From contig CAUYUJ010000001.1 of assembly GCA_963575745.1 (NCBI GenBank), forward strand, positions 2,728,001 to 2,792,000: a DNA stretch of 64,000 nt, read 5' to 3'. This document shows, piece after piece, positions 12,565 to 60,039 of the stretch. Below the pieces are notes generated by a model. It was not told the origin of the DNA, searched no databases, and saw only the letters and a program-made list of their open reading frames with translations. The DNA comes from Prorocentrum cordatum. Lineage: Eukaryota. Positions within the stretch are counted from its first letter, which is position 1, and every line of letters begins with the position of its first letter. Made by a program: the position numbers and the translations under genes.

Positions 12565-13689
12565 AAAGGAGAAAGAGGAGGAGGCCTTTCCTTACAAACC
12601 GTAGCTCATCGTTACACGCTGCCGCCATACGCCGGAGTCAGGGCACCGCAACATAGGCCCTGTGCACCGTAGGCCCTCGGCAAGAGCCGCACCTGCTCGT
12701 CAGGAGCGTCGGGGAGGGCAGGAGCATTGCGTTTGCAGCTTGGGGAGTTCTGGGCACCCTTGCCAGTGTGCGGTGCGCTGTGTCCCAGCGGGCTTCTCTG
12801 CCAGTCCGATGTTATGCGCCATGATGTTTTCCATCGTGCGCGCACTGGTTCCATAACTTTGAGGCTGTTCGAGCGCTGCGTTCCGATCTCTTTGTCTAAA
12901 GGTCGCGGCCATCAAGACGCAATGGCTCACGCAAGCCAGCGTTTGCCCAACGCAAAAAAGAAGATGATGGGTGTGGGGAGGGAAGGATAACCACCACTGA
13001 CAATGAGGACGAATACGAATAGGATAAAAGCAGGTGGTGGACAATAATTGGACGCGAGATGAGAGAGGGGAGGAAGAAAGGGAGGATTAAGACAATAAGG
13101 AGGAGGAGGAGGACGAGGAGGAGGAGGAGGAGGACGAGGACGATGAGGAGGGAGGATGATCAGGAGGACAATGAGGACGAGAAGGAGGATGATGAGGTCA
13201 AGAGTCAAGAGGAGAACGACCGCCGACCACAATGAGGGGAATGACGAGCGAGCCAGCGAGCGCGCGAGTCTGGCAGAGTTGGGGCCTGTTCAGGCCCGCG
13301 CGAGGGGACTTCTTCTTCTTCCCCCCCCCCCTCAACCTCGTCTGGTTTCGGAGCGGCCGTTCGGGACGATCCAGGCACCCCGGAACGCCCTCGGCGAGGC
13401 GCAGCTGCTGGAACGTATCCCGAGGCGAGAAAATCTGGCGGAAACAACGACACTCTCCCCCCTCTCGAGGGCCTCTTGGGCCGTCTTGGGCGATCCTGAC
13501 GCCGCCTTGGAGACCTCTTGCGGCCATCCTGGGCTCTCCTGGGGCCGAGGAGGAGGAGCAGGAGGAGCAGCAGGAGGAGGAGCAGGAGGAGGAGGAGGAG
13601 GAGGAGGAAGAGGAGGCCCACTGGCCGCCCTGGAGGCCCCCTTGGAGGCCCTCTTGGGGCCGCTTCCAGGTGGCTCCGCGGAAGGCCCC

Positions 13690-39732: not shown

Positions 39733-42103
39733 AATCCCACCAGCCCTTTCGGGCGTCGGTGGTCTAGAGAGCTTCCTCTTCCAACCCCCATTCTTTCCCT
39801 TCGGGGAGGGGTTTACCCCTCCCCTTACCCCTCCCCGCTGACCTGGACGGGGCGTTCCGCGACGCGCTGGAACGTCCAAGATGGCCCAAGACGGCTCCAA
39901 GAACGAAACAACGAAAAATAACAAAACATTGATTTACGTAGGTTTTGGACAGAGTTTGGCCTCTTGGGGGGCCCAAGAGGTGATTCGAGGCATTCTAGAG
40001 GGGCAACGCTAATGAAGAACCCCGCTTCTTTGATAGATCTCCTCCAACATGGCCCCAAGAGCGCCCCGAAGGCTCCCAAGAGCGCCCCGAGAGCGCCCCC
40101 AAGAGGGCCCCAAGAGGCCCCAAGAGGCCCCCAAGAGGCCTTCAAGAAGCTCACAGGAGACCCCCAAGAAACCCCACGAGGCTCCCAAGATGGCCCAAGA
40201 CGGCTCCAATAGCGAAAAAGCGAAACGCACAAACCATTGACTTTCCTTAGGTTTTGGAAGGAGTTTGGCTTCAAGAAGGGCCCAAGAGGCGATTCGAGGC
40301 ACTCTAGAAGGGCAGCGCAAGTATACGACCCCCGCTTCTTTGATAGATCTCCTCCAACATGGCCCCAAGAGCGCCCCGAAGGCTCCCAAGAGCGCCCACA
40401 GAGCGCCACAAGAGGGCCCCAAGAGGCCCCAAGAGGCCCCCAAGAGGCCTCCAAGAGGCTCCCAAGAGACCCCCAAGAGGCCCCAAGAGGCTCCCAGGAT
40501 GGCCCGAGACGGCTCCAAGAGCGAAAAAGCACAAACCATTGACTTTCCTCGGGTTTTGGAAGGATGTTGGCCTGTTGGGGGGCCCAAGAAGCGATTCGAG
40601 GCACTCTAGAGGGGCAACGCTAATGAAGAACCCCGCTTCTTTGATAGATCTCCTCCAACATGGCCCCAAGAGCGCCCCGAAGGCTCCCAAGAGCGCCCCG
40701 AGAGCGCCCCCAAGAGGGCCCCAAGAGGCCCCCAAGAGGCCTTCAAGAAGCTCCCAAGAGACCCCCAAGAAGCCCCAAGAGGCTCCCAAGCCGGCTCCAA
40801 GAGCGAAAAAACGAAAACGCACAAAGCATTGACTTCCCTTAGGTTTTGGAACGATTTTGGCTTCAAGAAGGGCCCAAGAGGCGATTCGAGGCACTCTAGA
40901 GGGGCAACGCTAATGAAGAACCCCTCCTTCTGTGATAGATCTTCTCCAACATGGCCACAAGAGCGCCCCGAAGGCTCCCAAGAGCGCCACAAGAGCGCCT
41001 CCAAGAGGGCCCCAAGAGGCCCCCAAGAGGCCTTCAAGAAGCTCCCAAGAGACCCCCAAGAGGCACCAAGGGGCTCCCAAGATGGCCCAAGACGGCTCCA
41101 ATAGCTAAAAAGCGAAACGCACAAAACATTGACTTTCCTTAGGTTTTGGAAGGAGTTTGGCTTCAAGAAGGGCCCAAGAGGCGATTCGAGGCACTCTAGA
41201 AGGGCAGCGCAAGTATACGACCCCCGCTTCTTTGATAGATCTCCTCCAACATGGCCCCAAGAGCGCCCCGAAGGCTCCCAAGAGCGCCCCAAGAGCGCCA
41301 CAAGAGGGCCCCAAGAGGCCCCAAGAGGCCCCCAAGAGGCCTTCAAGAAGCTCCCAAGACCCCCAAGAGGCCCCAAGAGGCTCCCAAGATGGCCCAAGTC
41401 GGCTCCAATAGCGAAACAACGAAAAGCACAAAACATTGACTTTCCTCAGGTTTTGGAACGATGTTGGCTTCAAGAAGGGCCCAAGAGGCGATTCGAGGCA
41501 CTCTAGAGGGGCAGCGCTAATATACGACCCCCCCTTAGATCTCCTCCAACATGGCCCCAAGAGCAAGAGCGCCCCAAGAGCGCCCCAAGAGGGCCCCAAG
41601 AGGCCCCAAGAGGCCCCCAAGAGGCCTCCAAGAGGCCCCCAAGAGACCCCCAAGAGACCCCAAAGACGGCCCAAGAGGCCCCCAAGCTCGCCATTGTCCT
41701 CCTCCTCCTCCTCCTCCTCCTCCTCCTCCTCTTTTTCTACCTCCTCCCTCCTCCCCCTTTCCCTCCTCCTCCTCCTCCTCCCCCTCCTCCTCCTCCTTCT
41801 CCTTTTCCTCCTTCTCGTCCTCCTCGTCCTCGCAGTGCTCCATCTCCTCCTCCTCCTCCTCATCTTCCTCCTCCTCCTCCTCCTCCTCCTCCCCCTCCTG
41901 CTCCTGCTCCTCCTCCTGCTCCTCCTCTTCCTCCTCCTACTCCGACGACGACGGCTCCTCCTACATCCTCCCCCTCTGGGGGTATATGGCGGCTCACCCC
42001 GCCCTTTGTTCTTCTGCACGCTCCCCCGCTTCCCTCATAACCTCCACTCCCCTGGGACTCATTTCTGGACGGGCTGGTGGGGATATGCGAAGCGTCTAGA
42101 ATT
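39733..42103 (+). mobile_element. Candidate non-autonomous element with short subterminal inverted repeats and a 3' mini-hairpin, filled with a ~300-bp satellite (~6 copies, 39880-41690)
   Basis: CCCACCAGCCC (39736-39746) versus GGGCTGGTGGG (42071-42081), followed by ATGC-GAA-GCGT and CTAG. The satellite marker CATTGA..AGGTTTTGGA recurs at ~39927, 40235, 40537, 40827, 41127 and 41434. Confidence 0.5.
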
Positions 42104-42848
42104 GTTCAATGCGGTGCCCCCAGAGAACGCGACCCTTTCCGTAGGGCCACTTGTCGTCCTCAGCAGGTCTTTGACTACCCTGTGGCCCTTCGAGGGCCCA
42201 CGAGGACCGAATGCAGCGGAACCCATGCGTCTCGCATTCTTGCCACAACTTTGCCTTCATGCCGACAGGAAGCCCTGGACACCCGCCGATCCGATTATTC
42301 CTGCCCGCGGCCCCGGAGGCCCCGACCGCTTCCCATGGGGGGGCAGCCTCTCCCCCCCTTGGGACCCGCCTCTGATCCTCCCGGGGCCCGAGGAGCCGCC
42401 CCCGAGGGCCGAAGGTCAAGGGAACACCGCCGGCCGAAGACAGACACATCGTCGCAGGTCTGGGAGACCGGCCACGCGCAGGAGCGGCCTCTGGGCAGGG
42501 AGTGGCCTCCGGTGCGCGGCTCTCTGGGCGCCGCGGGGGGACCAAACACAAGCGCGCAAGGCGCTCCTGAGGCATCGCGCTCGGCGATCGGGGGGCCCCG
42601 GTGCGCCCGACCCAAAGGCCACTGGGGCAAAGGGCCACTCGTACTTGATCAGGGGCCGACCGTCCTGGCATTCCTATAGTCCTACCACGAAGGGTTCTTA
42701 GAACACAGCAATGTTCTAATAACAAAAACAATGTTCTTAGAACATAAACCCGGTGTGTTCAAACAAGACAGTCCCAGCCAGAAATCTTCTAAGAACATGT
42801 CGTGCAAACCACAAGAGGTTCTTAAACCATTGTTTGGTGGGGCTATAG

Positions 42849-42873
42849 TTATGATATGCGTGGCCTCCTCCAG
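42849..42873 (+). repeat. Left TIR of the large transposon
   Basis: TTATGATATGCGTGGCCTCCTCCAG immediately after the TSD. Confidence 0.88.
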
Positions 42874-43540
42874 CTGGGAAAATGATCACTCCCCACAACA
42901 TCTCCCAGGGAGTCTCAAAACAGTTGTTTCCTACGTTTCCGACGCAGCCCCAAAACAGTTTTAAAGAATATCAAAAACAATGCTCGCTCGTATCAATGCG
43001 ATAATGCGGAAAACACAATAGTTCTAACGTTTTGCTGGGTGTGCCTCGGGTCCGCAGCGCATCGTCCCCCAAGAACCTCAGCGCGCGCTGAGTGCGATGT
43101 GTAGTTTGGCGGGGTTCAGCCCCTTTCCCCACAGGTGCGATGCGAGGTTCCGTATGGTTCAACCTAGGCCCTTTCAGGCCCCCCCCCGTGCCCTTTGGGC
43201 AGGACACGCACCGACTCGACGTCCGCCTTGCTCTGTTTTGAATCGGGGGTTGGGTAATGAGCGAGGGGGGAGACAAAATAAGGTCGGGGACTGGGCGGGG
43301 GTGGGGGGGGGGGGCACATGACACATGACAGAAAGGAAGGGCTGTGATGAGCGGGTGCAGGCGCCCCTTGCCCCCCCCCCCCCCCCCCCTTCCCAAGGGA
43401 TTCAGGACGCCCCCCCCCCCCCCGTCGCCAACGGCAGCAGCATCACCGCCATCATCATCACCACGCGCTGCCGTTTTGGATCGCACATGTCTCGGCAAGG
43501 CTTTGGCACTTTGTGTCTTTTTTTTTGCGGCAAGACCGCG

Positions 43541-46500
43541 ATGGCGGACGGCTGGGGCGATGTGCTCGCCGAGGTCGCGGGTGAGCCTCACCCGCCGCCC
43601 CGCGGCCCCGCGGGCGCCGCGGCCAGAGGGCCGCGCCCCCCGCCCCGCAGGCCCAGTCGGGCAGCCGCGAGGTCGGTCGCGGCGGCGGGCCGCACCAACG
43701 CCCTGTCGCTGCCCCTGTCGGAGTCAGTGAAGCTGCCCACCGTGCCCAGACACATCGTCCAATGCACGGGCAGAGGCTCGACAGATCAGTGGCCGCTGCT
43801 CCCGTACGTTCGCATGGCAGCGCTCGCGATCGAGCGCCAGAGAGTATCAGACCAAGACGTGCCAGCGAAGCTCAACAGCATGTTGATGGATTCGTCGTCC
43901 GAGCTGGCTGGCAGAACCACGTCAAAGGCATCGATCCAGGACTCGATCGGCGTGACCCATGGGAGCTACACAGAGTGCGTGATCGTCTTGGCCAACACCA
44001 TCGTACATTTCGAGCGGGACCAGAAGCTTGCGCTGGAGTGCTATTTGGCAAATACGGTCCCCAAGGAGAACTTGCTCCACTACGTCGAGGCGGTCAAGTA
44101 CGACGAGACCCCGATGAAGCTGTCAGTGAACGATTCGTTCCAAGCACGTGGTCGCGGTGCAGTGGGCTCTTCCGATCAGCAGCAGGTGGCCGTGTACCAC
44201 ATGGATCGATCTCGACAGTGGGGGAAGCCGAAGTTAGAGAGAACTGTCATCAAGCTGCTGCAGAGCTCGTCGAGGTTCGGGTACCTTCTGAGGACCAACG
44301 CGGGCGAGTACGTCGGCATCGTCGGCGCGTCCATTGCTCCGCTCCAGTGGCTGGATCGGAACACTGGGGAGTGTCTTCGAGAGGCGGACCAACGTCGCAC
44401 CACTGCTGTTGGACGGGCTGCTAAGGACTTTGCGTGCAAGACGCGCGTGTCAGTCCTGGACGGCGCTGGCCCGGACGCCCGCTGCGAGGCGCAGGTCGGG
44501 GTTGACCGACGAGGCGACGGCTGGGGCAAGATTGGTTTCACATGCTCCACGCATTGCCTCGCCAACGTATTCACGCACACCTTCGACCTGACGGGCTCCG
44601 ACGTGTCTAGCCAGATCAATTTCGCACTTGCCGTCAACGAGGGCTCGGGCTTCTCTTCTTTCTGTCGGATATTCCGCGCTGTGGTTCAACGGCGGATTCG
44701 CATCCGCAGGGGGAGGCCCCCTCCAGAGGCCACCCCGCGCAAGCGGCACTTGCTGTGCCTTTCGCTCGCAAGGGGGAGTCGACTGATCGAGAAGAAGACA
44801 GCTTTGCACCATTTGCCGAACGGGGACTGGAGGGACCGAGAGCACGTCGACATATGGATTCCCGAGGGCATCGACATAGACGAGAGCGAGATCAAGAAGT
44901 CGGTGTCGGAGGCCTTGGAGGTCGTCCTCTTGGGAGCTCGATTCACCCGGTGGCCGAGGAGCAGGTGGGCGGGGTCCGACGTTGCCATGGACGAGTTCAT
45001 CCTACTTGACGGCATTCACGGATTGGGCTCTGCTGTCTGGGCTATCTGGGCGAAAGAGATGGCTCGGGGCTCCAAGAGGAGACCTCGGCTGGGCGATGGC
45101 GGGGCTCTGCCAGCTGCTGCCGCTGGGCCTGCCGCCGCCGATGGCGGCGAGGGCGGCGCCGCAGAGGCTGCGGCTGCCAGCGGCGGCGATGGGCAGGGCC
45201 ATGGAGATTTCAATGCAAAGCGGCTGGGGAATGAGTACCATCGTAGCACCGCTGAAGATTGGATGGACACGTCGCCGCTTGACAGAGTGGTGATCATTCG
45301 GCAGGTGCTGGAGCCTTTACGTCGGACGATGGATTGGCACCTCGAGGTCGGCGGCAAGCACTGGGAGATCAAGCAGAGGGGCATGGTTGTCCAGGCTGAG
45401 TCCAAGGGCGCAGCCAGTTCGACGAGCAGGACGTGGCCGATCGTGGAGGCTGCGCTTGGCACCCCTGCGCGCGTCTTCCAGGCTGCGTGGGACCCTCTGT
45501 TTCGCGAGCACGTGCTGTGGAAGGACCTCGTGCAGCCGTCGGCGATGACTCGGAAGGCGCGCGCCCTCGCGTTCAAGCTTCTTTCGAGGTCTGAGTGCCA
45601 GGTCCGGGAGGCGTTCACGCATCGACATAGCTTGCTTCCGACTCGCACCTTCGCCATGATCGTGGACCCAGCCGTTGCGCAGGAAGTGAGTGACCTCCAG
45701 GATTGCCGCATGGACAGCTGGACGAAGGACTTCGTGCTGCGACACAAGGACGCGGACGGAGGCTTGTCGAACCCAGCGGCGATCGCAGTGTTGAACCTGC
45801 TTGCCGCCACGATCGACTTGGACATCAAGGCTATCGAGTCCCACCACGCCTCGATCCGCAGGCGGCTGATGGTCAGGGGAGTGCAGACCCACTCGGCAAC
45901 GTTCGCGGAGTCGTCGGCCGAATGGGTGGTTGCCCAAGCTCGTTTATCAGGCAGGGCATTTCGAGCAGTCGGTGAGGGGGGCGCGCCAGCAGGTGGTGGC
46001 GATGACGCAGGGGGCCCTGGCGGGCCGCCAGGCGAGGAGGCTACCGCCACTGTCAGGGGCACGGTGTCTTCTTGGCATGCTCTCCTGAGGGAGCAATCCC
46101 TTGGTCAGACTGGCCGCCAGTGCATCGCCGCCTTGAGCGCTGCGTACCGCGCTTTACCAAGAGCAGAGGTGGCGAGGCTGGCTGCCGTCGCAGCCGCGGC
46201 CAATGGGAATCCCCGTGCTGCGGATGCACCTGGCAGCGCCTTCGGCCTCCGGTCCCGCGACCTCGCTCGCGCCCAGGCCAAGAGGCGGCGGAAGGCGTCT
46301 GAGCAGCAGCTCGTCGCGGAGGCTGTCGTGCCGACCAGCCGCGGGGGGGTGACTGATTTGGCAATGCGGCGGGCATCGGCAGATCCCAACGCCACCGTGA
46401 ACATGGACTCGATGATGCGGGCTGCCCAGTCGCACATGGTGAGCTTGCGCCGCGTGGCCAAGACCGAGGAGCGAAAGATGGCCGACGCGATGGAGGCTTG

Positions 46501-47134
46501 GGAGTCGACTACGGGCGCTGCCCAGTGGGCATCCATGTGCAACAGTTTCAAGGGCGTGGCTGCTTTCCAGGTTATGCTTTCTCCTATGCCCTCGCACATC
46601 GGCCAGATGCTGGAGTTCAAGCGCCCTACTACGTCGACAGCTTCGATCGCTCGCTCGCTGTGGATGTCAGGGCACGGCAGCAACATGAAAGCTTGTCTCG
46701 CATCAGGCTGGATGGAGAGGCACAGGGCCATCATGCGCGACGACTGTGCCCCCGTAGACGTGCCCGTCCAGAAGAAGAAGTACACTTGTGCTCAGATCGG
46801 CATGTGCATCTGTTGCCCTGAGGCCGATGTCATCAAGAAGTTCCGCAGGCGCTTCTACTCCGAGCTGAAGGGCCTCTGCACCAAGGGGTCGCCCGAGCGG
46901 AAGCTCTTGGACGATTCCAGCTTGGTCGTGCGACTGCGCGGCATCAAGGCGGCTGTCGTCGATGGCCGGGGCGTTGTGGCAGCTGGCCCCTCTGGCGACG
47001 ACCCCGACGGCGTGGGCGCCTACGTGTGGTGGCACATCGGCTCCCACGAGTTCAGCCCCTACTGCTCCAACTTCAGGCCGCTCGCCTTCGTCGAGCAGGA
47101 GGCCGTCGGCGGCCAGGTGGAGGTATTGTTGGAG
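43541..47134 (+). CDS. Transposase exon 1 (RNase H-fold DDE core, HMG-box-like segment, Cys cluster); 3' boundary approximate
   Basis: Uninterrupted ORF 43325-47380, likely start MADGW at 43541. Motifs YDETP (D at 44102), LDGAG (D at 44459), CSTH (44543-44554), SRW (44960-44968), IESHHASIRR (E at 45836), SSWHALLREQ..AALSAAYRALPRAE (~46065-46190), CAQIGMCICC. Confidence 0.8.
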
Positions 47135-47472
47135 GAGTCGTTAGCGGAACGGAAACACACTCCTCCCACCACGAACGCGCGCGTGCACGCATGCGCGCTG
47201 GCACGCACGCGCGCGCACGCACGCGTGCGCATATTCGTAGGTGCGCGCACATACGGGCAGATACGCACGCACGCACACGCATACAGGCACGCAGGCACGG
47301 GCACAGGGGACGAGGGAGAAGAGGAGGGTGTGACGAGACAGACCAGGACGACACTGGCGAGGGGAACGCAAGGGGGCTAGTCGGAAAGGGGTCATAGGGA
47401 TCGATGGGGGGAGGATGATTGGGGATGGGGTGAGAGTGATCCCGTCATTGCTATAGTTTCGCCCCCCACGAG

Positions 47473-47827
47473 GGGTGCCACAGAGTCTTTGGTTGATTGG
47501 GAGGCGTTCAGTAGCTTGGACCTCACGGCCGATTGGTCGATCAGCTTTTGGGTCATCGACGAGAGTGATCGTGCCGTCGCCCGTTTTCGCCCTGCCGACG
47601 TCGTCGTGGTCTCCATGGGCCCCGAGTCCGAGCTGCGGCAGTCAGGGAAGGCGACGAGGCGGGCCACAGCTGCGCGGCCCGCCGCCACGGACGACGGCGA
47701 CGACGGCGACCACGGGAGCATCGCGTCGGACCAGGAGGAGGACCTGGATGACCCCCTCCCCCTGGACGACGGGCCCGTGGGCGGCGACGACCACGGCGGC
47801 GCGGACGACGTCCGCGCTGGTGGCGAG
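47473..47827 (+). CDS. Transposase exon 2 (5' boundary uncertain, 47473-47486)
   Basis: Same frame as exon 1 (VDWEAFSSLDLTADWSISFWVIDESDR...acidic tail). Ends at a phase-0 GAG|GA donor. Confidence 0.6.
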
Positions 47828-48340
47828 GACAGCATACTTGAATGTAAGTTCCCGCAAGCATCGCCTAATCCTAAGGTGGGGAGGCCTCTACATTTAACAC
47901 ATTAGCTAGTTAGGTTAACGGTGTGGAAAGTGTAAAACAGCAGCGCTTCAAACAAAAGCACAACAATCAAGCAACACGTAAAACAAAACAACGGCTCTAA
48001 CACATCACAAACAAGCCCCGATAGGTTCCGACACGCCACCGAAACGGCCCTATACGTCCCCAAGAGCGGGAGGTGACGAGGAGGTTGGACGACAGGGGGT
48101 TAGGGAGGGGGCGGTGGAAGGCAGGCAGGATATGAAGCAATCCCTGGTAAGATGAACAGATGCACATTACGGAGGAGGAAGATGATGTGAAGAGGCGGAA
48201 GCAACACGAGGAACATATGTATGTCTCTTGGGGGTCATCTTGGAGCCGTGTCGGGCCGTCTCGGCAGGCCTCCTCTGTGGGTCTGGGGTGGAGTGGGAGG
48301 GCTGGGGTTGCATCGCCCTCCTGCCCCTCGATCCGCACAG

Positions 48341-48904
48341 GACGAGGTCGGCATGGACATCGACGAGTTGTTCAGCGAGGGCGAGGGCGGCGACGGCGGC
48401 GGCGAGGTTCCGCTGCCGCCCGAGGCCCCTATGCCACCGCCTGTTTTTCCGTTGCCTCCGCCCCCGCCTCCTGTCTCTCGGGCCTCCCGCTCAGAGGCGG
48501 GGTCGCGGGCGAGCCGCGAGCCTGTGCAGCATGCTGTCAATGTCCAAGGAAAAGGTACGATTGTGTATTACAGGGAAGGCAGGTGTTTCGAGGCCAGGTG
48601 CCATCGTGGCCATGGCCGCTGCACAATGAGCGCAGCAGCGCACGGCAGCGATCTTGAGAATTTGGCGGCGCAGGGCCGCCCACTTGGCTTGTTAGTATCG
48701 TGGGCGCTGGACCTTGGGGAGGTCTGTGACGACAAGCCGTCGCACGAAAACAAATTCGCACTCCTGACGCTGCGTCCGTACATGAGGCGGCGTGCTCGGG
48801 AGCTCCTTCGTGGCCTGCCAGGTGGTTTGGATCTCATGTCGAAGGAGCGCCCGCAGCGCCCTGGAGAGCCCGAGGGGCCAGAGGGATTGGCGCCCTCCCG
48901 ATGA
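48341..48904 (+). CDS. Transposase exon 3 with a C-terminal Cys/His putative zinc-binding domain
   Basis: Phase-0 acceptor CCGCACAG|GAC. Peptide ..GTIVYYREGRCFEARCHRGHGRCT..GRPLGLLVSWAL..CDDKPSH..RRRAR..ERP..*. Confidence 0.65.
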   Translation, partial: DEVGMDIDELFSEGEGGDGGGEVPLPPEAPMPPPVFPLPPPPPPVSRASRSEAGSRASREPVQHAVNVQGKGTIVYYREGRCFEARCHRGHGRCTMSAAAHGSDLENLAAQGRPLGLLVSWALDLGEVCDDKPSHENKFALLTLRPYMRRRARELLRGLPGGLDLMSKERPQRPGEPEGPEGLAPSR

Positions 48905-49759
48905 GCGATGAACAAAAAAACGATTAATGGGTGTGGGGGGGGGGGATGGAGGAGCAGGATGCCGGGGAACGGTGATGAGGGGGAAGAGCAGGGACAACCG
49001 AAATGAGGAGGGGGTGAGGCCCTCGCTTCCCTTATAGGTTGCCGTGCAAGAAGGGCGGCTGGGGCGCCGATGGGCGAGGGGGACAGGGGTCGACGTTGAG
49101 GCGGGGGCTCTCGTTTTAGCGCCGCGCACGCTCATCTTAAACATCCGCAGCAGACGCGGATGGAAGGCGGGCGGTTTTCAAGTTGCGGCTCTCGCCTGAG
49201 CTCGTCTACAACTTGCATCAGCTACACTGATGGAGGGCGGGCGGTGTTAAAATTACGCTCTCGCCTTAACCTTGGCGCCGCGCAAACTCATTGTCAAAGC
49301 TTGCAGCACTTGCACTTCCCCCATCGCTGAACGGATCTGTCCGAGGTTTGGCGTGGCGACGTGCCCCGTGCCTGACAGCCTGGGCTTGGCAAGGGGGTGG
49401 GCAACGGTTCGAGGTGATTGGTCACCCCCATCTCCCCGTCTGACGCCCTCTCTTGGCTTTCGCCGCCGCCCCTCTCCTCAGCTTCGTCATGTCTGGCCCG
49501 CGAGCTCATGCATCTCAGACTCCGTCCTGCGGTAAGTGCAGTCATCATTGCCGTGCTGGCGCATCTTGGAGCGCCCTTTGGGGCGATGAGGGCCCCCTGT
49601 GCACTGTGGCGGCGGCTGCGGCGACGGCGGCGACGACGGCGAGTATGGCAAGGGTGACAGCGGCGACGACGGCGACGACGACGGCCCTTCGGCCAGTCGG
49701 TGTGGCTGGGGCGCCATGGGGTGCTCCTGGAGGTCCCCCCAGGGGGGCCTTCTGTACCC

Positions 49760-50400
49760 TCAGACTTTTTCGAGACTCCCCTGGGGGACTTCTTTGGCAC
49801 CGAGACTCTTCTTGAGACTCCTCCTGGGACCCCGCTAGACTGCGTGACTCTTTGTTGGTGCCCTCTCGGGGGCAGCTGTTCGAAGGATTCGGATGGAGAC
49901 TGTTTCGAGACTCTGTCTGAGACTTTTTCCTGCGTTTTTTTTTTGCGCGTCCTGGGGGCCCGGCACGGGGGGGGGGGGAGCGGCGACCGCAAGGGGGCTG
50001 TTTTTATATGTTTTTGAAACTGTGTTGGGACTTGTTGGTGCCGTTTTTGGCCAGGAGACTGTTTTGAGACTGTTTTGAAACTATTTTGAAACTGTTTGGG
50101 GGTTTGGGGAGCCGTTCAAAAAGTACAGAAAAAAGTACCAAAAAACGTCCCGAACAAGTCTCGAAACAGTCCCCCGCGCCGAACCCTCCCAAAAAGTATC
50201 CAACAAGTGCCAAAAAAGTATCAAAATAGTGTTTTGGCAGAGTCCCAGCAGCGATTTGGGCACCCGCCGCCCGATTCCCAAGAGTCTCAAAACAGTCTCA
50301 AACCAGTCTCAAAAAAAGTAGCTAAACAGCGCACTGCGAAAAACCAATGAAACCACAGCCCCCCGAAAAGTCTCGAACAAGTCTCAGGGGGGGGGACTCT
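49760..50400. repeat. Internal array of the subterminal motif ACTGTTT(T/C)GA(G/A)ACT, switching orientation at ~50120
   Basis: Forward copies at 49895-49930 and 50055-50097; reverse copies at 50156, 50283-50315 and 50369. 50058-50071 is the exact reverse complement of 42911-42924. Confidence 0.85.
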
Positions 50401-51331
50401 TCAGACCTTCAGCTGCCCAAAATGTGCCAGGGGGGAGACTCTGAGGACCCCCGCGCGCCCAAAGAGTGCCCAAAGAGTGTCCCGAGAGGGCGCCGAGCGG
50501 GGTCGCGAAGAGGGCCAGTTCCCGCGACGTTGGACCCTCGTGGGGAGCCCTTGGGGCCCTCTTGGGCCCCATTGGAGCCGCATCGTGCCCATGTTGGGCC
50601 CCTCTTAGGCCCCTGGGAGGGCTCTGAGAGGGTTCAGAAAGGGCACCCAGAGGCCCCAGAGGGTGCTCCAGACGCGGGGGGCCAAACAATAACATATGTG
50701 TTTGGGTTTCTGGCATCAACGCCACCCTGGGCTCCTCGTGGGGCCCTCTCGGAACCCCAAGAAGCTTGCCGAGAGGACCCAGGATTGGGCAATGCCGAAA
50801 CACACATGTTTCGGATGGGTTTAAGTTGCGCCCTAGGGGGGTCGCAAAGAAGGCGCCGAGAAGGCCCTGGACCGACCTCCTGGGCACCGCTACATCCGTT
50901 TCATGTTTACATTATAACCATTAGAGCAAGGGGTCCTGCAGACAAGCATCTGGCTGCTCGAAATCGGGGCCCTTCTCGGGGCAAGTTCGGAGTCGGCCTG
51001 GGCGTTAAGTTTGAAAATGGGGCCCGCGCTATAAATCTATCCTGGGCGCAACCAACGGCCCCACATAGGTTTCGTCGTTGACCTTTTGGGGCCCATGGCT
51101 TCGGCCGTTGCGAGTTGAACGGGGCCTGGGCCTTAGGGGGCCCTGGGCCGCCATGGGGCCCAGCTGTTGAAGGCCCTGGGCCGCCCTGGGGCCCGAGGGG
51201 CCCCCGCTCGACCGTCGGCGTCGCGTCGCCCTCTTGGCTCAAATTTCGCAGAGCCTTTGAGCGCGCGTGCTCCGGCCGCCAGTGCCCGACCAGCGCCGCG
51301 GCCGCCCGACGCCCAGCCGCTCGCATCGGAG

Positions 51332-51424
51332 ATGGCCAAGCGCAGCTCCAACGGTGAGATGCCCGCTGCTGGTCGCCAACGCCGCCTCGGTGCGAAGTCC
51401 ACGACGCGTGGTCTCTGCGGCGAG
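51332..51424 (+). CDS. Transposon ORF2 exon 1 (MAKRSSNGEMPAAGRQRRLGAKSTTRGLCGE)
   Basis: ATG at 51332. The GAG|GC donor joins in frame to the GAG|GCG acceptor at 51832/51833. Confidence 0.5.
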
Positions 51425-51832
51425 GCGCCGAGGGTCCAGCTGAAAACCGCACCAATAGCAACAACAACACAACAACAGCAACACCACTAGTAATAGCAAT
51501 AGCAGCAACAACAACAACAGTCGAAACAATAGCAACAACAACATCAACAACAATCACAACAACACAGCAACAACCCCCCGTCCCTGCTTTCTGCTCCCTG
51601 CTCCTTCCCCTCCTCCCTCCGTCCTTCATTCCCCCCATCCTCTGATGCTCCCGACCCTCCTCCCCTCCCCCTGCCCCCTACCCCCTCGTCCACTTGCGCC
51701 CCCCCCCGCCCCCCCCGTCGCTCGCAGAGTGGCGGGGGGGGGAGGCGGAGCGCGCGCGGGGCGCGGAGGGGGGGGGGGTCGAGGATCCGAGAAGCAAGTT
51801 TTTGCTTAACAGCAATTGTTTGCCGCCGCGAG

Positions 51833-54773
51833 GCGTGCGACGACCTGGTCAAGCGCGCCCGCGAGGACGAGGCCGTCTTCGCGCGCCGCAGTTGCGACGA
51901 CGTCTACATCCACAGCCTGAGCCTCATGACGATCACCGACGTCGTCGCGAGCATAAGCGACGATGTATTCAAGAAGGATTTCATCGAGGGGAAGATGCAG
52001 ATAAAGAAGCAGGGTAAGAGGCCGCTCTTCCCCGAGGAGGTGGGCAAGCGCGAGGTCTTCTCCATGAAAGTGAAGCGGAAGGCCCTCATCATGTCGAGGT
52101 CAGAGCTGCACAGATATTGCGGCTTCAAGCCCACCAAGAAGAACACGAAATCGATCCCCTCGATGATGTTGCACTCGGAGGACAGCCTAGACGTCGAGGG
52201 CGTATGGCTCTTCATGTGGACGATCGATTGGTCCTTCCTGCGCGCGCTGAGCATCAGCATGGGCGTCGTTAGCGAGAAGAGCTGTGCGTACATGAAGCAG
52301 GAGAACCACATCTTCGCCTCCCAGAGCACGCGGACGTTCGACTGGAGCATGGGCGAGCAGACTCACTCGAGTGGCCCGTCAACCTTGCTCGCGAACCTCA
52401 AGACCCACGAGGGCGCCGGCCTGGCCCTCACGGAGGAGATGGCCAACTCGATGGGGACGCGGCGTCTCCGCGGCGGGGGGTTGCCGTCAGGCGGGGTGTC
52501 CTCCACGTCGCCGCCGATGACCATGTCAGGAGCGTGCTCGGTCCTCTCTGGCGGCATCGAGTCCACGCCAACGGGGGGGGCGGGAGATGGCGAGACTGAC
52601 TCTCCGCACGCGCCCATGCTCTACAGCAAGGGCACCTTGTCGGCGACGACGATCAACGTCATGGCGGAGCGACGTGCTGCGAGGAGCGCTGTGAGCGGGG
52701 TGCCATCCGCCCTGTCGGCCATCGGCCGACTCCAGGCAGCGGCGGCGAACACCTGCAGCATCGATGCTGACGATTCGGCGAGCCAGGCCCCCAATGCAGG
52801 GGGCCCAGCTGTGGGCAAGGGGGACCAGTGGATTGCGAAGCTCCCGTTGTCGAAGGTGCTCACAGCTGGGAAGTTGGGCGCCCAAGCGCACCACGCCACT
52901 GGAGAGTCGAAAAAGGCTGAAGGACAAGGATAAGGACCAGTGGAACAGACTCACCCTGCACATGACGAGGTACGAGCTCGCGAACAAGCTTCACGAGACC
53001 AACATCTTCAGCGCCTCGGCTGGCGATGTCAAGGACGCCTTCGAGCGCCTGCGCCAGTCCATCGATGCCCCGCCCGTCGTCCAGAAGAACATGTGCAAGA
53101 AGATGTTCCAGGAACGCATGACAGTCGAGCTCCAGTCCATGACCGACGTCGCCTTCTTCTTTGAGATGGTGTGGCCATGGCCCACATCATCTCAGGAAGC
53201 GGGCCTCACCTTCACTGCGGATTCGCCGAAGCTCCACTTCATTGACCTCGAGATGGCCGAGAAGATCCGCATGTTCAACCAGAGTTTCATCAGCGGCGTG
53301 CACACTGCACTGATCGAGGGAGGCCACGAGAAGAAGGATATGCTCGTGGCGATTTCTTCTCGGATGGCTTCGCTGATGGACGATCTGCTGGCCGACGCAG
53401 AGGAGTTCTGCGAGGGCGCGTCGCACTTCTTGGGCGCGCTGGGCTCCATGGTGGGCGGCGTCGCCGAGATCTGCGACCCGACCAGCCCGTGGAAGGCGGG
53501 CGACATCGACGCCTTCTACAGCGACATCCTCTCCCTCGACCCCAACCGCGGGGACATCTTCAGCGGGCTGGAGGGGGTGGCGATCGCCATCGGCGCGTGC
53601 GCCGAGTACAGCAAGACGTGGGCGACCCTGATGAAGGACAAAGTCATGGCCATGGAGCTCGCCCCCCAGGTTTCAGCATCCACGTCCGCCCTCTTGTCGG
53701 TGGCGCGCAGCCCCCTGGGCTTCGACGGGGCGGTTGCTGCGGCCACCGCGGCGTTGAGCACCACCCCGAAAGTCGCGTGCTCCCTGGGCGACGAGCTCGC
53801 GACCCCCGTCGTCAAGGAGGTGAAGGCCGCGCTGAAAGATTTGTCGGCCAGCGTCGCCTCAGCCACGCCGACGGGGTCATTGGCGCAGACGCAGCAGAGC
53901 ACATTCATCCAGCTGTTGGGCAAGGCGGTCGACGCCATGCCGTCGGACGCCGAGCTTCTGAAGATGAAGACGGAGATGGACGAAGCCGACGCCTCCATGC
54001 CCCGCGATGCCATCAGGGCGCAGTTGACCACGCTGGTCAACGACATATTTGCTGACGCGGCGACCGCGGTCAACCTTCGCGACGACTTGCGCCTTATCAT
54101 GGGCAAGATGGCAAAGGACGACTTGGATTCGACGATGACTGCGAAGCTCGGCGAGTGCGCCTGCGCCCTCATCAAGAAGATCTTGACGGTGCCCGAGGGG
54201 GGCAAGGAGATGGCGGACGCCGCGACGCAGGCAGCGCACCACTTGCACGACTTCCTGCCGAGCACGGCCACGAAGGGACAGCAGCGGAGCTTGGAGGCAT
54301 CGAGCGCATGTCGGTCGCTGAGGCCGACCACGGAGGCGATCGTCCAGAAGTTCTTCGACGATGAGAAGAAGCTCATCGCGGAGCAGGTGGATCTCGGGGA
54401 CCCGCAGCTTGCCCTCCTGCGCGTCCTCCTGGAGAAGCTGGACGCCTACATCAAGGACGAGGCCGACTCGGACATCAGCTTGCACGAGCACATGAAGGCG
54501 CAGATCCACCAGTACGTGGAGGACGCGAGGCGCGTGGTGAAGACGGTGGGGCAGCACGCCGTCGACGTGGCATCGGCCGAGACCCAGACGACAGCGGCGA
54601 ATATCGAGCCCTACATGCACGGCCTCCCCGACGGCACGGACTGGTTGAGCGCTGGCCCAGCCAACCTCCACGTGTGGAAAAACTTGGCGGTCCACGCCGA
54701 CAGTGCGATCTTGTCCACGGAGATGAGCAAGACCATCGGCCCCTTGAAGAAGAATGTGGACGCTGCCGAGAAG
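51833..54773 (+). CDS. Transposon ORF2 exon 2 (unknown, largely helical-looking protein), one apparent +1 frameshift at the A5 run 52910-52914
   Basis: ORFs 51926-52933 and 52764-54854 have strong GC3 bias and fuse as ..TGESKRLKDKDKDQW.. if one A is removed. Confidence 0.75.
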
Positions 54774-54971
54774 GCGGCTGTGTGCCCCCCCCAGTTATGT
54801 TGGTGCAAACGTGCGCGGGCTCACGCCCGACGTATCTTTGCGTTTGTTTCTTAAGTTGTTCAGTGGGTCGCAGATGGGTTTCGAGGAGGAAGGTGAAAGA
54901 AGGAAAGCCGCGCACCAGTTAGCCTAAGATACCGCTGCATGGCCTTCCCTCCTTCACCTCCCTCTTGGAAG

Positions 54972-55253
54972 GCGCTGGCCCACTGGAAGTCCGAGGGTGA
55001 GAAATACGGATTGCGCATCGAGGGGGATCAGAACTACCAGAAGGTGTCAGACATCATCACCAACGCGTGGGTGACTCTTGTGACAGGCAGTCTGTTCATG
55101 GCTTTCAAGAAAGCGACTGACAAGCAGTTGCTGAGGGCTACGATCGTAAAGACGACGAGCGCCCTCAAGGAGCGTGGCATTTCGCAGGACCGTTTGCATC
55201 CAACCCTGTCGGCGCGGGTGCAGCTGGCCATGCAATTCAAAATTAATGATTAA
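54972..55253 (+). CDS. Transposon ORF2 exon 3
   Basis: The GC-AG intron 54774-54971 (AAG|GCG at both ends, phase 0) gives ..AAEK|ALAHWKSEG...MQFKIND*. Confidence 0.7.
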   Translation, partial: ALAHWKSEGEKYGLRIEGDQNYQKVSDIITNAWVTLVTGSLFMAFKKATDKQLLRATIVKTTSALKERGISQDRLHPTLSARVQLAMQFKIND

Positions 55254-56992
55254 TGTGTAGTTAGGTTTCCTGGGGCCGAGTGGTGTGGTGAAACGAGCTG
55301 CCATTTTGGCGTTCGGCACGCAGCGAGCGCACGCAGACGCCGCGCGTGCATGTCAGCACGGGTGCTGGGTGCGCGTGTAGAAAACACTGCAGCACCCTCT
55401 CCCGCAGCGTGCAAGCACGCAGCACGACAGAGAGGTACACACACACCACACACACACGCACGCACAAACCCAGCCCAGGTCCCAGCCCGCAGACAGCATG
55501 CGGGCTGACAGTTACGAGTTGCGAGTCGGTCCGCATCGGGGCCTGACTGGACTCAGTCAGGACGCGGTATCTCCAGCTCTCTAGGCCAGAGGAGAAAAAC
55601 ACGTGTGGCGGGGGTGCGTATTTCTCTTCCCCACTCTTCCGCCCACCCCACCCCCCCGATCCCCCACCGGCCTAACCCCTGCCCCCCGCCCCCCGCCCCC
55701 GCGGATCTCGAGCCGTCGCCACCTACCCCCCCCTCCGCGCCCGACAGAGTCAGAGGGGCCCGACGGGCCGACGGGGTGCCCCCGCGGCTGCGTCCGACGC
55801 CCCTGGCATCGCCAGAGGGCGAAGTCAGCCGCGTCGAGGCGGCGGGGAAGGGGAGGGCGGAGGAGGAGGAGGAGAAGGAGGCGGAGGAGTGGAACAGAGA
55901 CGGAAGGGAGGAGAAGGAAGGATGGTGGAATGAGAAAATGGAACAAGGCGTGATGACGGCGGGGCCTCTCCTTTTCCCTTCTCCCGCCTCCCTTCGTCCG
56001 CCCCGCCCCCCTCTCCCTTTTCCCTCCTCACCCCTTCCCTCACCCCTCTCCCCTTCGCCCCCATGTCCCTCCCCTTCCCCATCCCCCTCCCTCTTCCTCC
56101 TCCCCCTTCTGCTCCTCCCCCTCCTCATCCTCTCCCCCTCCTCACCTTTCTCTTCCCCCAGCTTTGCTTTCCTTGGGGCCCGTGCGCTCCGTTGTCTTGT
56201 TCATTATTGGCAGCGTTGCGTTTCTTCCCCTCCGAGGCCTCACGATATTTCTCCTTATGCTCCTTCCTCGAGGCCTTTCTGGCTTTCCTGTCCGCCTCCT
56301 TGTCATTGTTACAATGTACAATGGCAAGGAGGTGATGTTTTTGTTCGTTGAGTTCTTTGCATCGGTCTGAGAGCCATTAGTTCTTGTTCTCCATCTCGTC
56401 TGTTTTCATCGTGAGTTGGCACGCGACCTTAGCCCCCCCGCCTCCTCCCCCCCCTCCCTCCCCCCTCCTCTCCCCCCCCTTCTCCCCCCCTCTTGCCTCC
56501 TGCTTCCCGCCCCGCCCGCGGCCACCCGAGGGGGCAGGCCGCCACGGGCGGCCCGAGGGCGCCGCCGCGCCAGCGGGGGGGGGCACCCGAGCGGCCGTCG
56601 CCGCCGTCGTCGCCGCCGCCGTCGCCGCCGCCGAACCCCCCCTCTTACTCCCCACCCCCTCTCATTCCGAGTGGGCCGACGCTTTTTCCCGCCAGGAGCC
56701 CGCGGTGCGAAGGTGCCTAAGGCGAGAGCGCGATTCCGAAAACCAGCGCGTGTCCGAGTGGGCCCTCGGGCCGCAGGCAACCGCTGCCGCTGGCGCCTTC
56801 GGTGGAGCTCTCTATGAAGGCGCGGAACGTGTGAGCGCGCCGAAGTGGACCCTCGGACCGAATGCGACCGCTGGCAATGGGGCCTCCGATGGAACTCCCT
56901 ATGGGGCTCCGCCGCTATGCCCTCGCACCCCCCCTCCCCAGACCACCCCGCTGCCCCCGCCCCTCCCTCCTCATCCATCCCCCTCCACTCCG

Positions 56993-57014
56993 TCCGTGGC
57001 CATTTTGGCTCAAG
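56993..57014 (+). other. Near-complete dinoflagellate spliced-leader sequence inside the transposon's right end
   Basis: TCCGTGGCCATTTTGGCTCAAG matches DCCGTAGCCATTTTGGCTCAAG at 21/22. Confidence 0.9.
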
Positions 57015-57363
57015 GCCGCCTGGCTCCAAAGCGGCCTGCGCGTGGCCCGAGCGCGAGCTCGCGTCCGTGGGTGCCCCCCTTGCGCAGGTTCTTGCGCCTC
57101 GCGTTGGCTTCCTGATGTGCCGCGCGTTGGTTCGGCAGCGCGCGGCACGGGTGCTCTGCCCCCAGCCCCCCGCCCACTCGGCGGGGCGGGTTTGCGAAAT
57201 TGCGCGCGGCGTGGCAGCGCCGAGTGTCGCCTGAGTGGCCTGCACTTTTTTTTTTTGCGCGACAGTGTCGCCGCGACACTGTTTTGAGGCTCCTGAGCGC
57301 CGCGGCCTGCAGACTGTTTTGACACTCTTGACTACACTTGCCAGCAAAACCTCCATATCCCTC

Positions 57364-57388
57364 CTGGAGGAGGCCGCTGCCATCATAA
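57364..57388 (-). repeat. Right TIR of the large transposon
   Basis: CTGGAGGAGGCCGCTGCCATCATAA immediately before the TSD. Confidence 0.88.
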
Positions 57389-58849
57389 GGCTATAGGCAC
57401 GCCAGGACGCTTCGCCACTGCTTGACTTACGTGTAGTCGAAGAAAGGAGCGCCCCCGCCCGCCCGGACCCCAGGCCCATCCTTCAGGCGAGGGCCTGGTG
57501 GCGCGCAACGCGCGCGCGCGCGATCGGCGGCGGACCTGCCGGCGCTGCTCGCCCGCGTGGAAGTGCCTGGCGGCGGGGCGCCTCCGCCGTTTGCATCCCT
57601 GCCCCCTGAGGGCAACGCCAGGAGAAGAAGTCACCACCAGTGGGGTCGTCACTTGCTCGAGGAAGCGCCAGCTCCTCCGAGAAGTGCCCCCCCCCGGCCC
57701 CCCAGAACACTCCAGAGCCCTCCAGCGCAGCCCCTGACGTTCAAAAACCTCCTCGAGCGTCGATCCTGGGACTTCGATCCTCCAAAGGGCCTGCTGACCA
57801 CCCTCGTGTGGCGACTCCCCCTTGGCACTGCCCGGCCCCCCAGGAAGCGCCGCGGCGCGCGGACTCCGCGGCGGGAGGGAGCGGCGCACCGGGCGACTTT
57901 CTCGGACATGCCCTCCTCGGCCTTGCCCGGGAGGGGAGGGGAGGAATAAGGCTCCTCCTCCTGCTCCACCTTTGCCCCCGCCGCTCCCGCACCGTCCCCA
58001 CTGGCTCCCCTTTCCCCTCCTTGCTCTTGTCACTGTCCTCCTGCTCCTCCTGCTCCTGGTCATGCTCCTCCTCCTTCTTTTTGATATTGAGCGGACATGC
58101 GTTCTACAGCTGTTGCGTTCCGTCCTCCTTCTCCTCCTCCTCCTCCTCCTCCTCCTCCTCCTCCTCCTTCTCTCCCTTCTCTCCCCCGCCTCCTCCGCTG
58201 TTCCTGATCATCCCTTCCCCTCCTCGGCATCCTGCACTTTGTCATCGTGCTCCGTTGTAGAGGGGGAGGAGATGTCGGGGGGAGAGGAGATGGAAAGGAG
58301 GAACTAGTACGACTCGAAACAGAATCGGGAGGAAATGGAAGGAGGGTGTGGTGAAGAAGGGGAGCGGAAGGGGAGGATATGAATGGTACATGGAAGAAGG
58401 GGGGGCGCATATCGAAGGTGGGAAGAGGGTCGGGGAGGTGGACATGAAGAGGGGACCCCTTGGAAAAAAAGAGGGGGAGGAGGAGGAGGAGTCAGGAGCA
58501 GGAACCTCGGGATCCGCCTGCGCTCAGACTGTGGGGGTGCGAGATGGATCGCTCGCGCCACCTCGGAGGAGGAAGAGCAGGAGAAGCAAGGCGACTGCGC
58601 AAAAGCATGCAATCATGCTAACGGTCCTCTGCTCTGGTCATTGCCAGCATTGGGCAGTGGAAAAGGACTGCGACAAGTTCGGTCAATGCCACGCCAAAAC
58701 CACCAGCAGGTCGACAAGAAGAACGCAGTCCGTCGCTTCGGGGGACAATCCTCGAAGTGGCGGGCGAGCTGCTCGTTCAGCTGCCGCACGCGCGCCGCGG
58801 AGGCGGCGCCCTCGCGCGCGGCCTCGGGGTCGGCCAATGGAACGGACCG

Positions 58850-59100
58850 CGAGGAAGAGAGCGAGCGAGAGGGAGAGAGAGAGAGAGAGAGAGGAAGACG
58901 AGAGAGAAGGGGAGAGGGAGAAGGAGAGAGAGAGGGGGGGAGGCGCGAAAAGAACAGAGCGGATATGGAGGACCGAGAGGGAAAGAGCGAACGAGATGGA
59001 GAGAAATAGAGAGAGAGAGAGAGAGAGAGAACGAGAGAGTGAGAGAGAAAGAAAGAGAGAGACAGGGAGAGAGGGCAAGAGGGGAGAGCGAGAAGGAGAG
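58850..59100. repeat. (GA)n-rich tract
   Basis: Directly visible. Confidence 0.9.
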
Positions 59101-60039
59101 CGCACCACATCGGACGGCAACGTCGCCCGGCCCCCCGAAACACGATTGTCCCGTGGGTCCACTTCACAAAGCGACGAGCGTCGCTTGCGGAACAGGGGTG
59201 GCCCGGGATGCGCCCCCCCCCCGGCGCGGACCAGTGCGTCCCCGGCTGGAGAACGGAGACGGTCGGCGACGATCAGACCGCACGGGGGCCCGCCTGCGCC
59301 ACCGTGCGCAGGGAGGCGCCGGCTCCACGCGTGGATTGGTGTGCACGCCTCGGCGCCCTGCGAGGAGACGCGCCGCCCCTTTGGGCATCCCCTCAGCGAC
59401 CGAGACGCAGCAGACAACGGAGCAGGTGCCACATGTTCTCGCGGGACCCGTGGACGGAGGCTAGCACTGGTGTGCCGCCCTTTTGGGAGTGGGAAATGGT
59501 TTAATGGTTTGGAGGGTGGTCCCTCTGGTCGCACCAGGGCGGAAAACTCGTTTTGTGAGAACCCTAGACTCTTATGCACGATAGAACCTATCTATCAGCG
59601 GTGCTGCCTGGTCCTGTATCTGCTGAAGAGAAGTCACCAGCTGGTTGGCGCGTTCGTGACGTGCTTGATCCTCTTGTCGCTGGTGACTGGTCGCAGTGAG
59701 GTGCTGCGTGAGGGTTTTCCTCCGGACAATACGGTGCTCAGCACGATGCTCCGCGGGCATTCCGGTTCCATCACCTTGGTGGGTGGCATTACGGCCCCTT
59801 GTCCCCGTTCCCTGGTGGGGGGGGACCCCCGGTGGGGCGGGGAGAGCGAGAGGGAGCGAGGGCGAGAACGAGAGAGCGAGAAGGAGAAAGCGAGACGGAA
59901 GCGAGGCAAGGCGCCGACAGACGTCCAGAAGGACGGCCCCCGGAGCCCGGGATGTGCACTGTGGGAGTCCAGGAGCCCGAGAGAAAGAGAGGGGGGGGGG
60001 GGGGGGAAAGTTCGAGGAAGAAGCATCGGCGTAAGCGCG

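Follow-up and report, generated by a model that had tools for sequence, protein, structure and literature searches.

We analysed a stretch of 64,000 nucleotides from the dinoflagellate Prorocentrum cordatum (GenBank assembly GCA_963575745.1, contig CAUYUJ010000001.1, positions 2,728,001 to 2,792,000), referred to here as the window, which has a GC content of about 62 %. On its plus strand, positions 51332-55253 hold a gene that we call gene 2. It lies downstream of a second gene of the same orientation (gene 1), and both genes lie between inverted sequences that end at 42650 and 57420.

The three-exon gene 2

The model of gene 2 was fixed by paralogous P. cordatum proteins, by tblastn and by exact mapping of the annotated protein P0129. 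Exon 1 (51332-51424) encodes 31 amino acids that comprise a basic N-terminus and the first half of a zinc-ribbon-like motif; the same residues are found at positions 1281-1311 of the paralogous protein P0010. Exon 2 (51833-54773) consists of 980 codons plus one extra base and encodes an N-terminal domain, a linker predicted to be disordered and most of a helical rod. Exon 3 (54972-55253) adds 93 amino acids and the stop codon, for a total of about 1,104 amino acids. Intron 1 (51425-51832) and intron 2 (54774-54971) are both in phase 0 with GC..AG borders, and the splice junctions read identically in the paralogous proteins (P0010; tblastn). The open reading frame (ORF) pieces of the gene on the plus strand are 51533-52933, 52695-54854 and 54897-55253. 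A first-pass annotation made from the sequence alone had proposed a gene of about 1,100 amino acids with three exons and two phase-0 GC-AG introns, and this structure is confirmed. At the stop codon, a 7-nt tandem duplication (ATTAATG) within 55236-55253 alters the last residue of gene 2; contigs of two sequencing runs, X1 and X3, hold a single unit and lack the 7 bases at 55242.

The strong codon bias noted earlier is equally clear. GC content at codon positions 1, 2 and 3 is 0.55, 0.50 and 0.86 in one part of exon 2 and 0.59, 0.42 and 0.89 in the other, compared to a flat value of about 0.6 with no position bias in intron 1 and intergenic DNA. Composition counts agree with the description of the product as having a basic N-terminus, a Ser/Gly linker and an Ala/Leu-rich C-terminal part: exon 1 has 22.6 % K+R and 6.5 % D+E, the linker has 15.8 % S, 15 % G and 15 % A, and the C-terminal 750 amino acids have 13.3 % A and 10.3 % L.

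The window's own annotated model, P0129 (2,413 amino acids, 100 % identical to the window), departs from this structure. Both P0129 and P0010, which comes from another locus, are public models that fuse gene 1 to gene 2. In P0129 the fusion runs through a 2.9-kb GC..AG intron (48425-51316), with loss of the domain in the last exon of gene 1. The same model skips a frameshift in exon 2 through an invented 73-nt intron (52856-52928), which removes the best-conserved motif of the gene 2 family. UniRef labels the fused product 'Calmodulin', a name for which Pfam gives no support.

The frameshift itself is caused by one extra A in the run at 52910-52914. Distant homologues switch frame within 52897-52935, and the paralogues read GELKRLKDK through the run with one A fewer, which shows one A to be surplus in the window. 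The extra A is absent from the contigs of runs X1 (31.8 of 31.8 depth) and X2 (5.43 of 5.43) and from 4.2 of 6.2 depth in X3. The other 2.0 depth in X3 agrees with the longer run of the window, so the longer form may genuinely occur in one copy. The single-base frameshift of the first-pass annotation therefore stands, and it may be a mutation or an assembly error.

Two further features mark the window's copy. It has Arg at the third Cys of the zinc-type motif, as does P0008, and it carries 37 private substitutions among the annotated copies of gene 2. With the extra A, the loss of a putative zinc-binding Cys and these substitutions, the window's copy is probably dead.

Inverted termini, gene 1 and dispersed copies

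The segment that holds both genes spans 42650-57420 (14,771 bp). A general listing of inverted pairs returned only low-complexity pairs, and a search for the right terminus confined to 55200-57200 found only a match to a G run; the termini were found later through a 12-nt motif, TCTCAAAACAGT. The motif has 14 matches at up to two mismatches compared to 2.38 expected per window, and none of 100 shuffles reached 14. All 14 lie inside the segment and none elsewhere in the 64 kb. Two are on the plus strand near the left end (42913 and 42948) and two on the minus strand near the right end (57278 and 57313). The other ten form a cluster between the genes (49764-50307), with six minus-strand copies at 49764-50091 followed by four plus-strand copies at 50159-50307.

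The two ends are inverted copies of each other. The outer left terminal inverted repeat (TIR; 42650-42680, plus strand) starts at the proposed left end of 42650 and matches the reverse complement of 57420-57391 at 24 of 30 bases. The inner left repeat (42843-42959, plus strand), with the motif copies at 42913 and 42948, aligns with the reverse complement of 57404-57278. The right TIR (57278-57420, minus strand) contains the other two terminal motif copies and gives the proposed right end of 57420. In the terminal alignment, 42835-42959 pairs with the reverse complement of 57404-57278, and under stricter scoring it reaches 265, whereas 300 dinucleotide shuffles average 188.7 and peak at 242 (0/300 reach the observed score). 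An exact 12-mer core, GGCCTCCTCCAG, occurs in the window only at 42862 (plus) and 57364 (minus), and a 19-nt pattern only at 42661-42679 (plus) and 57391-57409 (minus). The outward limits read CAGGGG... at 42650 and CAGTGG... on the minus strand at 57420. No inner copy of the terminal core GGCCTCCTCCAG was found near 50.1 kb, which argues for one element rather than two. The segment thus has inverted repeats that bracket a coding region, as is generic for TIR DNA transposons, and the earlier placement of gene 2 inside a TIR-bounded segment is upheld with ends at 42650 and 57420 and with the upstream same-strand gene included.

A nested insert of about 162 bp (42681-42842) interrupts the left inverted repeat; it resembles a miniature inverted-repeat transposable element (MITE) and is foreign to the element proper. 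It is flanked by duplicated CTATAG (42675-42680 and 42843-42848) and has internal inverted repeats. Its part at 42693-42753 occurs in hundreds of contigs across all four sequencing runs, with 52-113 contigs in X1, and the insert is a member of a very abundant small repeat family. Repeats of GTTCTTAGAAC at 42684-42835 were considered as subterminal repeats and rejected as part of this MITE-like insert. Contig joints at 41341/56993, 43390/56441, 47710/49660 and 49685/56992 were set aside as having sides of 20-25 nt in low-complexity DNA.

An arrangement like that upstream of gene 2 is seen in an environmental contig, L001, which carries a distant gene 2 homologue. The contig starts with six repeats spaced by 11 nt (8 pattern matches compared to 0.09 expected), followed by GGGCCC-rich repeats and the homologue. 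The window shows the same order, in which the motif cluster (49764-50307) precedes GGGCCC-rich repeats (about 50500-51210) and these precede the start codon of gene 2 (ATG, 51332). Both motifs have an AGTC...AAAA core. The repeat pattern of L001 misses the motif cluster of the window and has three matches elsewhere (15157, 16681 and 16700), so that the repeats are alike in layout and not identical. This layout hints, at the level of sequence, that the repeats belong to the unit. At its 3' end L001 also has a perfect 67-nt inverted repeat (6049-6115 and 6301-6367) with the contig's own 15-nt motif, which may be an assembly hairpin or the end of an element.

Gene 1 (43541-48904, plus strand) encodes 1,487 amino acids in exons at 43541-47116, 47504-47827 and 48341-48904, defined by the exact map of P0129. 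Its first piece is an ORF of 1,352 amino acids on the same strand as gene 2 and upstream of it. The first intron has GT..AG borders; the second (47828-48340) is apparently GA..AG, a non-canonical dinoflagellate type. Homologues in environmental data (P0127, P0128 and P0130) are 25-37 % identical. At 48530-48904 the last exon encodes a Cys/His motif followed by GRPLG..L..W, and this motif is in frame at the C-terminus of the environmental homologue P0128, with no Pfam match. Four diverse gene 1 sequences conserve an Asp (DETPM), a second Asp (D.A..N), C..H and, about 430 residues later, a Glu (IE..H..RR.L). We take this order to be that of the hAT/Mutator/CACTA/P group of transposases. A transposase is a plausible lead for gene 1, one that we hold, on these sequence patterns, with moderate confidence.

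The element appears to be repeated in the genome. The 90 % cluster of gene 2 has seven members on scaffolds of differing lengths, to which P0129 adds one, and the copies are 87-98 % identical in protein; copy number here is a count of annotated copies and not of read depth. Across 43629-55428, 8 listed pieces of X1 contigs align at about 98 % identity. On another scaffold, P0010 likewise contains gene 1 followed by gene 2. The two genes are therefore neighbours at both (2 of 2) loci in which each of them is visible.

The copies also appear to carry a record of selection and decay. Between the window and X1, 25 differences are listed in gene 1 at 43706-44914, of which 14 are synonymous and 11 are not; compared to the 25 % synonymous expected at random, this suggests that the gene 1 lineage has been under selection. 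Divergence among the annotated copies of gene 2 is even: the N-terminal domain differs by 5.3 %, the linker by 5.7 % and the helical part by 4.9 %. This looks like neutral decay after insertion, as expected of transposon copies. Differences between the window and X1 are dominated by C>T and G>A (134 of 312 places, several at CpG). This excess fits deamination of methylated cytosine.

Taken together, we think it probable, though well short of certain, that gene 2 encodes an accessory protein and is the downstream member of a gene pair carried by a TIR DNA element of 14.8 kb (42650-57420). In this explanation the element would be present in roughly ten dispersed, decaying copies in P. cordatum. 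The interpretation of the first-pass annotation is partly supported.

Several observations weigh against the two-gene element. No clean target-site duplication was found, and the 8 bp outside 42650 and 57420 differ. The best candidate is a 6-bp one (CTTGAT at 42644-42649 and CTTGAC at 57421-57426, 5 of 6 matching), from one old copy and chosen post hoc. The ends were defined from a single copy and show only about 80 % similarity, and just 2 loci reveal the two genes side by side. The gene 2 models P0005-P0009 lie on scaffolds whose lengths differ from those of two gene-1-only models, and L001 has no gene 1 relative within 957 bp upstream or 1.8 kb downstream of its gene 2 homologue. DNA binding by the gene 2 protein and its contact with the gene 1 protein are predictions. 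The gene 1 protein has 0 families at E<=1 against Pfam-A, and at E<=10 Pfam returned only noise for P0127, P0128, P0130, P0129 and six gene 1 segments. PDB sequence profiles gave 0 matches for gene 1, and all its named neighbours in a language-model atlas are hAT-related at 0.76-0.79, under the tool's trust level, which makes them leads only. The naming of the upstream gene as a transposase in the first-pass annotation thus found no profile support.

Copy number alone also proves little, because dispersed duplicates are common among dinoflagellate host genes; in the parts of PMC10666404 considered here they make up 64.8 % of P. cordatum genes. It is conceivable that gene 2 is an ordinary multicopy host family, that gene 1 and gene 2 are neighbours duplicated as a block and that the inverted sequences at 42650 and 57420 are unrelated repeats. 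Such duplicates being the rule in this genome would fit that explanation, as would the fact that, in the same parts of PMC10666404, the annotators' transposon filters left these models in. Both genes have spliceosomal introns and a host-like codon bias, and Pfam finds no transposase signature in gene 1. Yet the inverted termini beat 300 of 300 shuffles and bracket exactly the two genes, and they carry a 12-nt motif found nowhere else in the window. The folded domains of gene 2 diverge as fast as its disordered linker, unlike those of a host protein under selection. We consider the host-family explanation improbable, and the family searches count against it further.

The gene 2 protein family and its predicted structure

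A search with the long ORF of gene 2 returned one cluster of unnamed P. cordatum proteins at 94 % identity. To look beyond close relatives, the intact paralogue P0006 was compared exhaustively by phmmer to 1.84 billion representatives, resulting in 92 relatives at E<=1e-3, 39 at E<=1e-10 and 10 at E<=1e-30, each representing a cluster at 50 % identity. Many of these homologues are about 1,000 amino acids long and align end to end at 20-26 % identity. We looked up 20 of the clusters. All members of 17 are unnamed and stem from environmental assemblies, on contigs of 3-14 kb; another two bear the JGI label 'hypothetical protein' and one holds the P. cordatum protein P0131. P0131 represents a second P. 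cordatum subfamily, 39 % identical to P0006 over 490 amino acids and clustered with a transcriptome peptide. This diversity of 92 clusters at 50 % identity, with only unnamed environmental contigs or P. cordatum in 20 of the 20 looked up, speaks against an ordinary host family.

The gene structure extends to distant members. ORFs of homologues stop exactly at the end point of exon 2 in the window. In L001 a GC..AG phase-0 intron lies at the position of intron 2 of gene 2 and is followed by an ORF of 90 amino acids. This ORF has no significant BLASTP match to exon 3 of the window (E 4.9), and its placement as exon 3 is through position, ORF and splice sites only. A single-protein scan of metagenome contigs found only L001 and L002. 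In addition, a 70-amino-acid peptide of a transcriptome assembly attributed to a green alga matches residues 112-181 of P0006 exactly; this suggests transcription together with a mislabelled or contaminated assembly.

The first-pass annotation recognised no motif in gene 2, and our profile searches agree. Pfam has no match in the gene 2 pieces of the window, and on 19 homologues it returned four families with one member each at E 0.005-0.056, which is noise. The best match to PDB sequence profiles (E 0.06) is to a designed helical bundle, and the language-model atlas gave no usable match. Full-text literature searches, which included parts of PMC10666404 and PMC12130899 and had supplements outside their scope, found no description of the family. 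By these sequence comparisons the gene 2 product belongs to an old, diversified and so far undescribed family.

The depth of the family bears on whether gene 2 serves the element or was picked up by it, a choice that the first-pass annotation had left between an accessory factor and captured cargo. If gene 2 were captured host cargo, gene 1 would be the transposon's only dedicated gene. The functional link between the two genes is one that we infer, and the L001 homologue without gene 1 in its flanks of 957 bp and 1.8 kb would fit capture. Against this, the family searches and the 20 clusters looked up revealed no free-standing named host homologue, and homologues of only 20 % identity keep the length, the domains and the intron. 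The similar layout of repeats upstream of the L001 homologue fits long-term co-evolution with the element, and the gene pair recurs at a second locus. A deep family with its full architecture kept favours a dedicated factor over recent cargo. We regard capture as very improbable, and the gene 2 protein would rather be a dedicated accessory factor; the deep family and the recurrent pair favour this half of the earlier proposal.

An AlphaFold2 model of P0006 was built from 86 sequences (mean predicted local distance difference test score, pLDDT, of 82.4). Residues 1-205 form a beta/alpha domain (pLDDT about 90), residues 209-323 have pLDDT below 50 and are read as a disordered linker, and residues 330-1067 form an all-helical rod of about 740 residues (pLDDT about 90). 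The N-terminal domain is preceded by a zinc-ribbon-like motif, Cys-x2-4-Cys...Cys-x2-3-Cys/His. Of the 42 homologues with the domain anchor, 12 carry the motif; among the 20 whose sequence extends for 130 residues or more ahead of the anchor, 10 do. The junction of exons 1 and 2 in P. cordatum falls within the first Cys pair.

Fold searches, like the profile searches, found no relative of gene 2. With the full model, Foldseek against the PDB returned only generic solenoid proteins with template modelling scores (TM-scores) of about 0.1, and the best match of an exhaustive VIA search (Z 10.4 over 106 residues) is background for helical proteins. CATCHR tethering proteins (Exo70, Sec6, Tip20 and the MUN domain of Munc13) among the VIA rows for the rod were rejected, with root-mean-square deviations of 8-16 Å and Z in the helical background. 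The N-terminal 217 residues of the window's own sequence were also folded alone (pLDDT 83.8). For this domain Foldseek found nothing at E<=0.001 (best 0.045), and VIA found 0 of 48,161 chains at Z>=5 (best 3.7). PH-domain rows for residues 66-183 of the domain (Z about 3) were too weak to use. The absence of a structural match is no proof, and the modelled N-terminal domain may represent a new fold.

A search of the full model against a viral fold library returned long-helix proteins. It is conceivable that the locus is another mobile or virus-derived element that does not move by cut-and-paste, with gene 2 encoding a structural or replication-associated protein. Herpesvirus tegument and tape-measure proteins, which are long and helical, top the viral search, neither protein of the element resembles known transposon proteins and the homologues come from short environmental contigs. 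The TM-scores of 0.06-0.14 are nevertheless those of generic long-helix matches. Scans of viral contig collections with P0128 and P0029, which see close relatives only, found no relative. The conserved introns with dinoflagellate-type GC donors and the TIRs with subterminal motifs, a combination of termini typical of DNA transposons, also argue against this explanation, to which we assign as slim a chance as to cargo.

Comparison with known transposons and other features of the window

Two-gene TIR transposons are already known, and this element matches no superfamily tested. The closest layout is that of the maize CACTA element En/Spm, which produces a single alternatively spliced transcript, encodes the non-catalytic protein TnpA and has short subterminal repeats. 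Like TnpA, the gene 2 protein is a second protein encoded downstream of gene 1 on the same strand, and it is accompanied by clusters of subterminal repeats; this likeness is one of layout and not of sequence. The public annotation, a gene prediction, splices gene 1 to gene 2, which recalls the En/Spm transcript. Unlike TnpA, the gene 2 protein is about twice as long and has no sequence or Pfam similarity to it. The ends of the element read CAGGGG and CAGTGG instead of CACTA, and no Transposase_21-type domain is matched by Pfam.

Gene 1 shows some likeness to hAT elements (Ac, hobo, Hermes). Its homologues keep the D...D(x)A..N...C..H...E order with a long spacer before the Glu, all its named atlas neighbours are hAT-related (at the sub-trust scores given above) and CAG opens both ends of the element, as is common among hAT termini. 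However, neither gene 1 nor its homologues match the hAT dimerisation domain or the hAT-type RNase-H models, and in this one old copy no 8-bp duplication is seen at the ends. Normal hAT elements carry a single gene between short termini; here, two large genes lie between termini that extend over about 75 bp or more, and subterminal repeats are present.

A two-gene layout is also shared with PIF/Harbinger, whose second gene is Myb-like, and with MuDR, whose second gene is mudrB; in both, a second protein is needed for transposition or accompanies it. Pfam finds neither DDE_Tnp_4 nor a Myb/SANT domain in either gene and no MULE domain in gene 1, and the size and architecture differ from those of PIF/Harbinger and MuDR.

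By analogy, we hypothesize that the gene 2 protein acts as TnpA does in En/Spm. The basic N-terminus, the zinc-ribbon-like motif and the beta/alpha domain are predicted to recognise DNA, and the likeliest target would be the 12-nt repeats at both ends and upstream of gene 2. Alternatively, the N-terminal part may recognise the product of gene 1. In either case the helical rod of 740 residues, together with the flexible linker, would serve as a scaffold joining ends or partners. A bolder proposal, which we put forward tentatively and think rather unlikely, is that the element represents a new, previously undescribed superfamily of eukaryotic TIR transposons that is widespread among marine protists. 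The protein that catalyses its transposition would lie beyond current profiles, and the element would depend on a second protein with a new N-terminal fold that reads 11-12-nt repeats located at the termini and in front of gene 2.

Dinoflagellates have very large genomes that are rich in repeats, most of which are unclassified. Here a complete two-gene element with definable ends appears to encode two proteins that are both invisible to Pfam, to filters of the TransposonPSI type and to PDB searches. As a result the annotation treats the element as a host gene, which UniRef even calls 'Calmodulin'. Environmental data contain many members of the gene 2 family, whose N-terminal domain is modelled confidently without a structural relative. 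If the protein is an accessory factor, it would offer a new protein-DNA recognition module and a handle to classify and mask a class of dinoflagellate repeats. If that interpretation fails, gene 2 still represents an abundant, conserved and unnamed protein family of marine protists.

Other repeats were observed in the window. Near-perfect copies of the dinoflagellate spliced leader are found at 12549-12569 (minus) and 56994-57014 (plus), two matches compared to 0.00 expected, and an 11-nt core of the spliced leader lies at 55300-55310 (plus), just downstream of the gene 2 stop. The copy at 56994 is inside the element, within a very high-copy stretch (56342-57008). Such genomic spliced-leader sequences may be relics of retroposed transcripts. 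The stretches 55675-56341 and 59010-59676 are nearly uncovered by contigs of the runs, from which we draw no inference. Outside the element, a tandem array at 39876-41686 has a period of about 300 bp, units that are 85-88 % alike and words resembling CCCAAGAGGCC, with very high depth in all four runs; words related to CCCAAGAGGCC also occur at 26.4-27.1 kb and 60.9-61.3 kb.

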